Source: a virus
Taxonomy: Duplodnaviria > Heunggongvirae > Uroviricota > Caudoviricetes
Length of the DNA: 5,715 bases
Reading direction: 5' to 3' (one strand)
Virus record (IMG/VR): IMGVR_UViG_2534681759_000003
A model generated the notes under the pieces. That model was not told where the DNA came from. It saw only the letters and a program-made list of their open reading frames with translations, and made no database searches. Below, piece after piece: positions 2,531 through 4,927 of the stretch. How positions within the stretch are numbered: position 1 is the stretch's first letter; each line of letters starts with the position of its first letter. The translations under genes were made by a program, and so were the position numbers.

Positions 2531-2563
2531 TCCATAAACGATAAAACCGCCCGGAGGCGGTTT
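2531..2563 (-). terminator. Terminator-like stem-loop in the I-J intergenic spacer (8-bp stem, 4-nt loop, followed by a U-rich tract on the minus-strand transcript)
   Basis: Plus strand 2544..2563 aaaccgcc-cgga-ggcggttt is a perfect inverted repeat. On the minus-strand RNA it reads AAACCGCC-UCCG-GGCGGUUU followed by UAUCGUUUAU, then the J SD and ATG. Function not established; in lambda the late operon is read through under Q antitermination. Confidence 0.3.
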
Positions 2564-2581
2564 CACATAAAACATTTTGCA

Positions 2582-3253
2582 TCAGCGACCAATCACCACA
2601 ACCTGACCACCATCCCCTTCGTCTGCCGTGCTGATCTCCTGAGAAACCACGCGTGACCCCACGCGCATTTCACCGTACAGAACCGGCAGAACATTACCCT
2701 GGGCAACCATGTTATCCAGGGAGGAGAAATAGGTGTTCTGTTTGCCGTTATCCGTTGTCTGTGTACGGGGAGTTCTGGCTTTCGGTGCCAGCATCTGCGC
2801 CACACCACCGAGCACCATACTGGCACCGAGAGAAAACAGGATGCCGGTCATACCACCGGTCCCAATGGCTGCCCCCCATGCTGCAAGGGTGGCTCCGGCG
2901 GTAAAGAATGATCCGGCAATGGCGGCAGCCCCCAGGACAATCTGGAATACGCCACCTGACTTGGCCCCGGCGACTCTGGGAACAATATGAATCACAGCGC
3001 CATCAGGCAGAGTCTCATGTAACTGCGCCGTTAACCCGGACGTGCTGACGTCCCGCCCGGCAATCCGTACCTGATACCAGCCGTCGCTCAGTTTCTGACG
3101 AAACGCCGGGAGCTGTGTGGCCAGTGCCCGGATGGCTTCAGCCCCCGTTTTCACACGAAGGTCGATGCGGCGACCAAATCGTTGTAAATCCCCGTAAAGG
3201 CAGATGCGCGCCATGCCCGGTGACGCCAGAGGGAGTGTGTGCGTCGCTGCCAT
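2582..3253 (-). CDS. I: Tail assembly protein I (N-terminal ubiquitin-like beta-grasp domain, C-terminal Gly/Ala-rich hydrophobic region)
   Basis: 223-aa ORF in the track (MAATHTLPLASPGMARICLYGDLQRF...QVVVIGR), recognised as lambda gpI. Putative SD GAGAGG about 11 nt upstream (complement of 3265..3270). Start lies 103 nt inside the 3' end of K, as in lambda. Stop TGA at 2584..2582. Confidence 0.93.
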   Translation of the reverse strand: MAATHTLPLASPGMARICLYGDLQRFGRRIDLRVKTGAEAIRALATQLPAFRQKLSDGWYQVRIAGRDVSTSGLTAQLHETLPDGAVIHIVPRVAGAKSGGVFQIVLGAAAIAGSFFTAGATLAAWGAAIGTGGMTGILFSLGASMVLGGVAQMLAPKARTPRTQTTDNGKQNTYFSSLDNMVAQGNVLPVLYGEMRVGSRVVSQEISTADEGDGGQVVVIGR

Positions 3254-3894
3254 TTGTCGGTGTACCTCTCTCGTTTGCTCAGTTGTTCAGGAATATGGTG
3301 CAGCAGCTCGCCGTCGCCGCAGTAAATTGCGGCGTGATTCGGCACTGATGAACCAAAACAGCACAGCAGCACATCGCCCGGCTGTGCCGCTGACAACGGC
3401 ACCTGATACAGCCCCGTCGCCTCCAGATTATCCAGATAGAGATTCTGGCCGTTACGCCACCAGTCATCCTCACGATAAAAGTCCGGCATCTCAATCCCCG
3501 CCAGATGATAAGCATCCCGGAACAGTGTGTAACAGTCCGTCACACCGTGCTCAAAGCGCCGCCCGGTGAGATGCGGCACACAGCGGAACTTATGAATCGT
3601 CCCCCGGCAGACCAGCCACCACGGCAAATCACTCTGCACCTGCAGCCGCCGGTCGGTCTCACTCAGCCAGGGCAGACCACCGGGGTGGCTGTGGACCAGC
3701 GCCACAATCTCACCCTGCATCTCTGCCCGCAGCCAGTCCTCCGGCGACATCCGGAAATACTCCTCCGGCTCACCGGAGATATTCACGCAGGGAAAATATC
3801 TTTCCCCCTCCGGCGTGCTTACCACGAAGCCGCACGACTCCGCTGGCGCACATCGCCGGGCGTGCGCCAGAATCGCTGATTCTGTCTGTGTCAT
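3151..3894 (-). CDS. K: Tail tip assembly protein K: N-terminal JAB/MPN (JAMM) metallopeptidase-like domain plus C-terminal NlpC/P60 cysteine peptidase-like domain (long 247-aa form; alternative internal start at 3750 gives the classical 199-aa form)
   Basis: 247-aa ORF in the track. JAMM signature H68-S-H70-x7-S78-x2-D81 (HSHPGGLPWLSETD) with a candidate upstream Glu in AESCGFVV (E19). NlpC/P60-like Cys in GVTDCYTLF and His residues in NHAAIYCG / LLHHIP. ATG at 3894 lies 5 nt after the L stop. Internal Met49 (3750..3748) is preceded by GGAGGAG (complement of 3760..3766) with a 9-nt spacer. Confidence 0.88.
   Translation of the reverse strand: MTQTESAILAHARRCAPAESCGFVVSTPEGERYFPCVNISGEPEEYFRMSPEDWLRAEMQGEIVALVHSHPGGLPWLSETDRRLQVQSDLPWWLVCRGTIHKFRCVPHLTGRRFEHGVTDCYTLFRDAYHLAGIEMPDFYREDDWWRNGQNLYLDNLEATGLYQVPLSAAQPGDVLLCCFGSSVPNHAAIYCGDGELLHHIPEQLSKRERYTDKWQRRTHSLWRHRAWRASAFTGIYNDLVAASTFV
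3760..3766 (-). promoter_or_regulatory. K: Shine-Dalgarno sequence (GGAGGAG) serving the internal K start codon at 3750..3748
   Basis: Complement of plus-strand ctcctcc at 3760..3766, 9 nt upstream of the in-frame ATG that corresponds to the classical 199-aa K start. Confidence 0.5.
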
Positions 3895-3899
3895 GGGAT

Positions 3900-4598
3900 T
3901 TACTGCGAAAGTTTGTTAATGGAAAGGAAGCCGCCAAAGTTGCCGACGTTATTGCGGAACTTACAGCCACTCAGGCATTTGCTGCATTTATCCTTCGTGA
4001 TATCGGACGTCGGCTGGTCATATTCATCCGCGACCGCCGGACCGCTATAACCGCACTCATCGCCGCGATAGGTCCAGGTGCAGGTGTTGGCCAGCATGAT
4101 ACGTCCCGGAAAAACAGCGCCATCCGTTTCAGTCGGCGTGGACAGTACAAAAGAGGCACTCACCGCGCTCAGTTCGCTGCACTGCTCGATGCGCCAGCGG
4201 CTGATCACCTCCTGCTCCGGATCGGCTTCGCTGTTTCCGTTGACGAAGTTCACCGCATCCAGAAAGCGGGCGTAAACCTTACGCCGGACCACCGTTCCGC
4301 CGACCAGACTCTGCAGATCTTCCGCCATCCCGGTGATCATGCCGTGCAGGTTAGAGACCGTCAGTGTCGGACGGGCAGCACTGCCCTTGCCGTTCATCTC
4401 AAATCCACTCCCCTGAATGGGATAGGCCTGATACTGCCGACTCTGCCAGGTGACAGACTCACCTTTTTCGTTCTGCTCATTACAGAAAAAGTAGCGATCT
4501 CCACCGACCTCTGTCAGGTCGATTTCCCAGAGCACCACGCTGGCCGACTGCTCCGCACGGGTGCATTCATTCAGTGTTTCCTGCCGGATATCCTGCAT
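3900..4598 (-). CDS. L: Tail tip protein L (Cys-rich C-terminus; lambda gpL is reported to bind an iron-sulfur cluster)
   Basis: 232-aa ORF in the track (MQDIRQETLNECTRAEQSASVVLWEIDLTEVGGDRYFFCNEQ...FLSINKLSQ), recognised as lambda gpL. Its ATG overlaps the M stop by one base (minus-strand TGATG, 4600..4596). C-terminal region has five Cys (..NTCTW..DECGY..DKCSKCLSGCKF..). Confidence 0.93.
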   Translation of the reverse strand: MQDIRQETLNECTRAEQSASVVLWEIDLTEVGGDRYFFCNEQNEKGESVTWQSRQYQAYPIQGSGFEMNGKGSAARPTLTVSNLHGMITGMAEDLQSLVGGTVVRRKVYARFLDAVNFVNGNSEADPEQEVISRWRIEQCSELSAVSASFVLSTPTETDGAVFPGRIMLANTCTWTYRGDECGYSGPAVADEYDQPTSDITKDKCSKCLSGCKFRNNVGNFGGFLSINKLSQ

Positions 4599-4927
4599 CA
4601 GTTCACCACCTGTTCAAACTCTGCGCTGAACTCAACACGCAGCATACTGACCCGCGACGACCATTTTGCGCAGGTCACCTTTATCTGCCGCCACTCATAA
4701 GGCGGCGTCCACAGAAAGGCTTTCCAGCCCCCGTGCTCTTCCAGAAACGACTCCAGTACCGTGGCCTCCTCACGGGGGACAGAAAGCGTCACGCTGTACG
4801 TTTTCAGGTTGGCATTCAGCCCGGCAGGCGCTCGCTGGGAATAGCCATCACCAAAGCGCACCTTTCTTACAGAAGGGGCCGAAGCCACATCCATACCGGG
4901 TTTCACTTTCCAGCGGAAGGTTTTCAT
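4598..4927 (-). CDS. M: Tail tip protein M
   Basis: 109-aa ORF in the track (MKTFRWKVKPGMDVASAPSVRKVRFGDGYSQRAPAG...EFEQVVN), recognised as lambda gpM. Strong SD GGAGGTGG (complement of 4931..4938) 3 nt before the ATG at 4927..4925. The start sits in an ATGA context that in lambda also supplies the H stop codon. Confidence 0.92.
   Translation of the reverse strand: MKTFRWKVKPGMDVASAPSVRKVRFGDGYSQRAPAGLNANLKTYSVTLSVPREEATVLESFLEEHGGWKAFLWTPPYEWRQIKVTCAKWSSRVSMLRVEFSAEFEQVVN

Follow-up and report, generated by a model that had tools for sequence, protein, structure and literature searches.

The window, a 5,715-bp stretch of viral DNA, carries tail genes on its minus strand in the order M-L-K-I-J. 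Gene K, at 3151..3894 on that strand, very probably belongs to a lambda-like E. coli prophage and encodes tail-assembly protein K in its full length of 247 residues, starting at ATG 3894. In the ORF list of the window, the K frame comprises 247 aa and a stop codon (744 nt), and the segment 3652..3894 corresponds exactly to K codons 1–81. The neighboring genes are closely packed, with a one-base overlap between M and L and a 103-nt overlap between gene I and the 3' end of K. The features to which we refer below are as follows, with the evidence for each in brackets.

4598-4927, minus strand: gene M (Pfam PF05939)
3900..4598, minus strand: gene L, encoding minor tail protein L, directly upstream of K (Pfam PF05100, E = 1.5e-98)
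3895..3902, minus strand: L stop TAA (3902..3900) and 5-nt spacer ATCCC, followed by the K ATG at 3894..3892; proposed translational coupling site (sequence; no SD)
3151..3894, minus strand: gene K, full length (ORF list; PF14464 and PF00877; identity to WP_024190628.1; same 744-nt CDS called by PGAP in complete genomes)
3751..3894, minus strand: K codons 1–48, which the classical 199-aa lambda K does not have; they encode helix 1 and the first JAB strands (pN/pS, homologue alignments, AF2)
3583..3888, minus strand: JAB/MPN (JAMM) metallopeptidase domain, residues 3–104 (Pfam Prok-JAB, E = 2.6e-14; 2KKS alignment; Foldseek)
3838..3840, minus strand: codon GAG of Glu19, predicted JAMM general acid-base residue (conservation; equivalent to AfJAMM E22)
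3652..3693, minus strand: H68-S-H70-x7-S78-x2-D81, predicted JAMM zinc-binding core (translation; conservation)
3748..3766, minus strand: internal SD-like GGAGGAG (3766..3760), 9-nt spacer, and Met49 ATG (3750..3748), the classical lambda K start (sequence; alignment to J02459)
3720..3800, minus strand: predicted local RNA fold with the internal SD paired and the AUG in a 3-nt bulge (MFE -34.6 kcal/mol, z = -2.7; prediction only)
3223..3564, minus strand: NlpC/P60 (C40) cysteine peptidase domain, residues 111–224, with C121/H187/H199 (PF00877; Foldseek)
2582..3253, minus strand: gene I, ubiquitin-like tail assembly protein I (Pfam PF06805 at residues 14–97)
2521, minus strand: start of gene J; the end of gene H also lies in the window (tail-tip genes)

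Near-identity and position both place the gene among the TAPK proteins. The DNA is 98.8–98.9% identical to lambda over 901 nt, and K lies between L and I, with flanking genes recognized as L (PF05100), M (PF05939), and I (PF06805). Its product is identical to WP_024190628.1, a 247-aa protein named 'C40 family peptidase', and differs from the 247-aa lambda K at four residues (A45E, Q56R, A80T, and H139Y). In RefSeq, the 247-aa lambda form is labelled 'MULTISPECIES' and occurs on at least 1000 contigs. The segment 3652-3905 of the window, which spans the L stop, the spacer, and K codons 1–81, is matched in 4326 of 5426 complete E. coli genomes; all 12 matches listed carry the annotation 'C40 family peptidase' together with 'phage minor tail protein L'. 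In the one complete genome inspected, PGAP places a 744-nt K CDS starting 5 nt past L. The window K is an ordinary member of a very common prophage protein family that is already correctly annotated, and its combination of JAB and NlpC/P60 domains was published in 2006. The added value of the present analysis concerns the canonical lambda K entries, which are N-terminally truncated through a one-base discrepancy.

K is predicted to combine two peptidases, with a JAB/MPN zinc metallopeptidase in its N-terminal part and an NlpC/P60 cysteine peptidase in its C-terminal part. Residues 3–104 match Prok-JAB (PF14464) over profile positions 3–112 of 114, i.e., over the whole domain, with a score of 53.5 bits against a cut-off of 25 (E = 2.6e-14). 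The alignment starts at residue 3, not downstream of residue 49, and takes in Glu19. The initial annotation of this DNA had proposed that a Glu within the 48-codon N-terminal extension completes a JAMM signature, and this is borne out by the motif E-x(n)-H-S/T-H-x7-S-x2-D, which is found in K with canonical spacing as E19, H68-S69-H70, S78, and D81. All five residues are invariant in 21 close homologues. Among 107 distant homologues (<60% identity), the predicted general acid-base residue E19 is retained in 103, the predicted zinc ligands H68, H70, and D81 in 105, 104, and 104, respectively, and the JAMM serine S78 in 96, with threonine in 8 others. The corresponding residues of AfJAMM from A. 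fulgidus (1OI0) are E22, H67, H69, S77, and D80, at nearly the same spacing, and its Glu, located on strand 2, is the general acid-base residue (PMC300881).

The solved JAB protein 2KKS aligns to K from within residues 3–7, with its PNEACG opposite PAESCG of K, and the NCBIfam desampylase model aligns to residues 3–103, scoring 31 bits against a cut-off of 130. An AF2 model of K, which was built on a 21-sequence alignment and is moderate overall (mean pLDDT 77.5, pTM 0.55), has a helix at residues 3–15 and strands at 19–27, 30–35, and 62–70, with a pLDDT of about 90 for residues 1–30. Foldseek searches of the PDB with the N-terminal half returned PfJAMM1, both alone and with the ubiquitin-like SAMP2, as well as CSN5, Rpn11, AMSH, 2KKS, and AfJAMM. 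A sequence search for a solved gpK structure gave none, with only distant matches to 2KKS. The 199-aa form that starts at Met49 aligns only to profile positions 63–112 and scores 24.6 bits, under the PF14464 cut-off of 25. The loss of profile positions 3–62 supports the earlier expectation that such a protein would likely lack an intact metallopeptidase site; K translated from Met49 would be left without the predicted catalytic Glu and about half of the JAB fold.

In the C-terminal domain, PF00877 aligns over its full length (positions 1–105 of 105) with 48.3 bits against a cut-off of 23 (E = 1.1e-12), and the Cys-His-His triad of the NlpC/P60 family is present. C121, H187, and H199 are invariant in the 21 close homologues and are retained in 102, 103, and 104 of the 107 distant ones, respectively. 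With the C-terminal half as query, Foldseek found MepS, Acd33800, and other NlpC/P60 enzymes in the PDB.

On comparative evidence, K residues 1–48 are real coding sequence. An open run of 48 codons alone is weak evidence of coding, with a probability of about 0.16 of arising by chance at the base composition of the window. The substitution pattern is more telling. Compared with Stx2a_WGPS2 K, a protein with 86% identity to the window K, codons 1–48 carry 15 synonymous and 4 non-synonymous changes (binomial P = 1e-6 under neutrality), and pN/pS is 0.09 in this part versus 0.19 in codons 49–247. A tblastn search with the 247-aa K matched 1760 phage records, 1720 of which cover at least 80% of the query, and an exhaustive phmmer search yielded 1748 representatives at E ≤ 1e-10. 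In both types of search, alignments of homologues with 27–50% identity begin at K residues 1–10; these distant homologues come from phages of Klebsiella, Ralstonia, Mannheimia, Vibrio, Pseudomonas, and Rhizobium and from T1-like phages. A start near residue 49 was found in just one of 107 aligned representatives with <60% identity. The profile matches, the substitution pattern, and the distant homologues form three independent lines of evidence by which we consider codons 1–48 to be translated.

The 199 residues given for lambda K in the classical annotation are an artefact that goes back to a missing G. The distance from the L stop to the classical K ATG is 148 nt in J02459/NC_001416 and 149 nt in the window. 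J02459 lacks one G, which corresponds to window position 3760 and lies 10 nt before the classical ATG (GGAGGC-TATTTCC vs GGAGGCGTATTTCC). Both distances, and an upstream ATG out of frame in the reference, had been given in the initial annotation, and alignment to J02459/NC_001416 confirms them. In these two records, the upstream ATG opens an ORF of only 76 aa, and K is annotated at 14276-14875 with 199 aa. Since the missing G puts the upstream ATG out of frame, Met49 with its SD-like GGAGG was left as the only plausible start for annotators. The G and an open 247-codon K are present in every independently sequenced lambda or derivative that was read. Sequences in this state are OM418625 (lambda imm21), PV340536, LC730321 (Lambda_AGU, 48,503 bp), KT232076, DE3 of BL21(DE3), PhiR49_2, Chlobot, a Logan prophage contig, and the window. 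Among the sequences compared, the 148-nt state is confined to J02459, NC_001416, and two derivative-looking records. One of the latter is OR474059 (strain lambdaS3243, 48,892 bp), which is marked 'UNVERIFIED', is unannotated, and appears to be a reference-based derivative; the other, in which the reference coordinates are unchanged, is described as a lambda 'isolate' from chicken swabs. PhiR49_2 and Chlobot, which were found as 900-nt megablast matches, were considered as frameshifted copies and rejected, as their missing base is from the L-K spacer (4 instead of 5 nt) and their K has 247 aa. A programmed frameshift behind the frame break of the reference was likewise rejected, as all other sequences are simply in frame.

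Mapping of laboratory lambdas to NC_001416 routinely yields '+G at 14,266, intergenic L/K'. Genome-wide, LC730321 differs from J02459 at 15 positions, which include del-138 and +G after 14266. In MutaMouse, both of these changes, as 137 AG>A and 14266 C>CG, have been tabulated without comment for the lambda-gt10 transgene (PMC6760142, Table 5). Our literature search for an explicit published statement that lambda K has 247 aa returned only this variant table (PMC6760142) and domain-architecture papers. Most economically, the missing G reflects an error in the 1982 sequence, or a private mutation at most.

Two other explanations have to be weighed against this reading. If the classical annotation were right, K would have 199 aa from Met49, and 3751..3894 would be an untranslated or incidentally open spacer between L and K. 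The annotation is long-standing (J02459, NC_001416, and TIPK_LAMBD), a strong SD precedes Met49 and none precedes ATG 3894, and an open run of this length could arise by chance (P ~ 0.16). It is nevertheless extremely unlikely to hold. Purifying selection is stronger on codons 1–48 than on the remainder of K (pN/pS 0.09, P = 1e-6), the residues encoded by them align with the first half of the JAB profile, predicted catalytic Glu included, and their protein sequence is conserved in phages of Klebsiella, Ralstonia, Mannheimia, Vibrio, and Pseudomonas. Among the sequences compared, only J02459 and records copying it have the 148-nt gap. Alternatively, the difference could be a real polymorphism, in which case reference lambda would live with a split K and the JAB domain would be dispensable for plaques. 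Both later records with the 148-nt state would speak for a polymorphism, but they look reference-derived. The source of J02459 was a viable phage, and the frameshifted copy still has Met49 with its SD; against this, the G occurs in all other laboratory lambdas and derivatives (DE3, gt10, imm21/imm434 hybrids, Lambda_AGU, PV340536, and KT232076), and the G-bearing lines have del-138 relative to J02459 in common, a pattern typical of reference errors. We consider a real polymorphism very improbable.

The error in the reference, as we read it, is carried by the canonical database entries. UniProt TIPK_LAMBD (P03729), AAA96551, and NP_040598 all hold the 199-aa protein, and the 247-aa lambda form is available as XSB40720.1 in PV340536. 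On in-frame DNA, a 199-aa K is a choice of the gene caller or annotator: among entries with intact frames, K was given 247 aa in PV340536, PhiR49_2, Chlobot, and Stx2a_WGPS2, 211 aa in KT232076, and 199 aa in DE3 and imm21. Clusters of 199-aa proteins with thousands of metagenome-derived members were considered as a real short gene and rejected; the one contig inspected is in frame, and the caller had picked Met49. The K of J02459, NC_001416, and TIPK_LAMBD is without its first 48 residues and consequently without the predicted catalytic Glu and half of the JAB fold. K clones made from reference coordinates, structure models derived from P03729, the designation of '+G at 14266' as intergenic, and proteomic searches for gpK peptides are possibly affected, and work on gpK and gpI in tail-tip assembly needs the 247-residue form.

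ATG 3894 would be the start actually used. The initial annotation had described a frame open for 247 codons from an ATG 5 nt past the L stop with no obvious SD, and an internal ATG for Met49 at 3750..3748 preceded by GGAGGAG at 9-nt spacing. Every element of this description is confirmed by the sequence, in which the 5-nt spacer reads ATCCC. The two starts also differ in predicted anti-SD pairing, which is +0.7 kcal/mol before ATG 3894 and -9.5 kcal/mol before ATG 3750. The starts of the neighboring genes M, L, and I have predicted pairing energies of -10.8, -7.2, and -9.3 kcal/mol, respectively. The K start region is A-rich and predicted to be unstructured (P(unpaired) 0.79), and the gap between L and K is 1–10 nt in relatives. 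Translationally coupled late operons are typically packed as tightly as M-L-K. In view of this packing, the 5-nt gap, and the unstructured A-rich start, ribosomes finishing L would most likely re-initiate at the SD-less ATG 3894 to translate K. The internal GGAGGAG arises from the Pro-Glu-Glu codons CCG GAG GAG, and RNA folding gives it a P(unpaired) of 0.18 in the window K and 0.15 in lambda. Elongating ribosomes would melt the predicted structure around Met49.

In lambda-type phages, the internal start could still yield a second product. Two functional isoforms would then coexist, an L-coupled full-length K and a Met49 form in which the NlpC/P60 domain would be intact and the JAB domain disabled, and their ratio would matter for the tail tip. 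The internal SD, at -9.5 kcal/mol, is comparable to those of true starts in the operon, gene callers often pick Met49, and natural NlpC/P60-only versions of TAPK exist (Iyer et al., PMC1779556). On the other hand, Met49 is poorly conserved: residue 49 is Ile (ATT) in Stx2a_WGPS2 K at 86% protein identity, varies among Met, Ile, and Val in the 21 close homologues, and in the 107 distant representatives is mostly Ile (66), with Met in 14, Leu in 14, and Val in 6. GGAGG itself is a by-product of conserved Pro-Glu codons (CCG GAG G..), and folding predictions place the SD, mostly paired (P(unpaired) 0.15–0.18), within a stable local structure. Taken together, the sequence evidence leans against a conserved short form of K, and we regard the two isoforms as unlikely. 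A regulated variant of this scheme is also conceivable, although rather improbable, in which Met49 would be a true second initiation site whose SD is hidden in the hairpin except in some mRNA states, so that a 28-kDa K with a competent JAB domain and a 23-kDa K that is JAB-dead and has NlpC/P60 only would take separate roles in the tail tip. Were Met49 such a second start, decades of work with the 199-aa reference K clone would have covered the truncated enzyme only.

Iyer, Burroughs, and Aravind (2006, PMC1779556) described TAPK as a JAB domain joined to an NlpC/P60 domain. In their proposal, TAPI (gpI) is the substrate of TAPK, and its ubiquitin-like N-terminal domain would be cut at the C-terminal glycine. 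Their TAPK proteins have the same two-peptidase architecture and lie beside TAPI (gene I) and TAPJ, and the window K is a typical member with no substantive difference. It is also the same gene as lambda gpK, in the same M-L-K-I-J context, with the distinction that the reference entries of the latter miss residues 1–48, Glu19 among them. Lambda K is needed for tail assembly and is not in the virion, according to the literature on lambda only. In the cryo-EM study of the lambda virion, gpK was not detected, and gpI was resolved at residues 135–223 only (PMC10721106). The absence of gpK and the partial gpI in the virion are consistent with removal of the ubiquitin-like part. From these reports, K would act in tail-tip assembly without being retained in the virion, and its JAB domain probably cuts the ubiquitin-like N-terminal domain off gpI.

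Known enzymes offer parallels for both halves of K. PfJAMM1, the desampylase of P. furiosus (5LD9/5LDA), AfJAMM, and DSY2949 (2KKS) share the motif and the predicted fold of K at about 20–25% identity, and the cleavage of ubiquitin-like SAMP conjugates by PfJAMM1 parallels the proposed processing of gpI by K. Unlike these stand-alone JAMM peptidases, K is fused to a C40 peptidase and has a role in virion assembly. Rpn11, CSN5, and AMSH have the MPN+ fold and the JAMM zinc site that are predicted for K, at 14–23% identity, and they work within large complexes. The C-terminal domain of K has the papain-like fold and the Cys-His-His triad in common with E. coli MepS (8XUP) and C. difficile Acd33800 (9UBF). 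In contrast to these two enzymes, K has no signal peptide and is not in the virion, and it probably acts on a tail protein instead of the cell wall.

In PHROGs, the single K protein encoded at window 3151..3894 on the minus strand is divided among several families. One of these, phrog_7305, is a 76-position family of "unknown function" that matches K residues 1-76, and another, phrog_30, spans 544 positions and is an apparent merger of L and K. This division seems to go back to fusions and to start calls that differ between annotations. Fusions of K have been noted before (Iyer et al., PMC1779556), and some database proteins (P0014, P0016, P0020, P0031 and P0034; 310-430 aa) join K in a single ORF with L (PF05100) or I (PF06805). 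These K-L and K-I proteins may be real fusions, or else frameshift or assembly artefacts in prophages.

At the internal Met49 start of K, the RNA is unusually stable by prediction (-34.6 kcal/mol, z = -2.7):

3720..3800, minus strand, predicted RNA structure around the internal Met49 start (fold prediction)

Four CCGG-containing repeats (TCTCCGGTGA, CCGGAG, TTCCGG and TCGCCGGAGG) are the building blocks of this predicted fold, in which the internal Shine-Dalgarno sequence is paired and the AUG lies within a 3-nt bulge. Lambda is predicted to share this fold (-30.0), but the Stx phage is not (-22.8).

The annotation problem of gene I, whose start region covers window 3154..3253 on the minus strand, is the opposite of that of K. 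PGAP and several phage records choose GTG 3154, which overlaps the K stop (GTGTGA) and yields a product of 190 aa; classical I begins at ATG 3253, with a Shine-Dalgarno dG of -9.3, and has 223 aa. In the classical protein, however, the match to the Pfam profile Lambda_tail_I (ubiquitin-like) runs over residues 14-97; GTG 3154 is residue 34 of that protein, and a start there would cost about 20 residues of the domain.

Downstream, between the I stop (2584..2582) and the J start (2521), lies a further element:

2544..2563, minus strand, perfect 8-bp GC-rich hairpin (found by eye)

The hairpin reads AAACCGCC-TCCG-GGCGGTTT and is followed by TATCGTTTA; the combination looks terminator-like, within the late operon. 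A consensus terminator scan did not include this hairpin among its results.

Across the whole genome, the 1982 lambda reference J02459 and the re-sequenced laboratory lambda LC730321 differ at only 15 positions. Relative to J02459, LC730321 carries del-138, +G after 14266, and +C at 20833, which falls in orf-401/stf; the other differences are substitutions, located at 542, 17183, 18835, 20661, 21704-5, 21714, 22444, 25662, 31016, 34934 and 45618. Some of these differences may be further reference errors with an effect on annotation.
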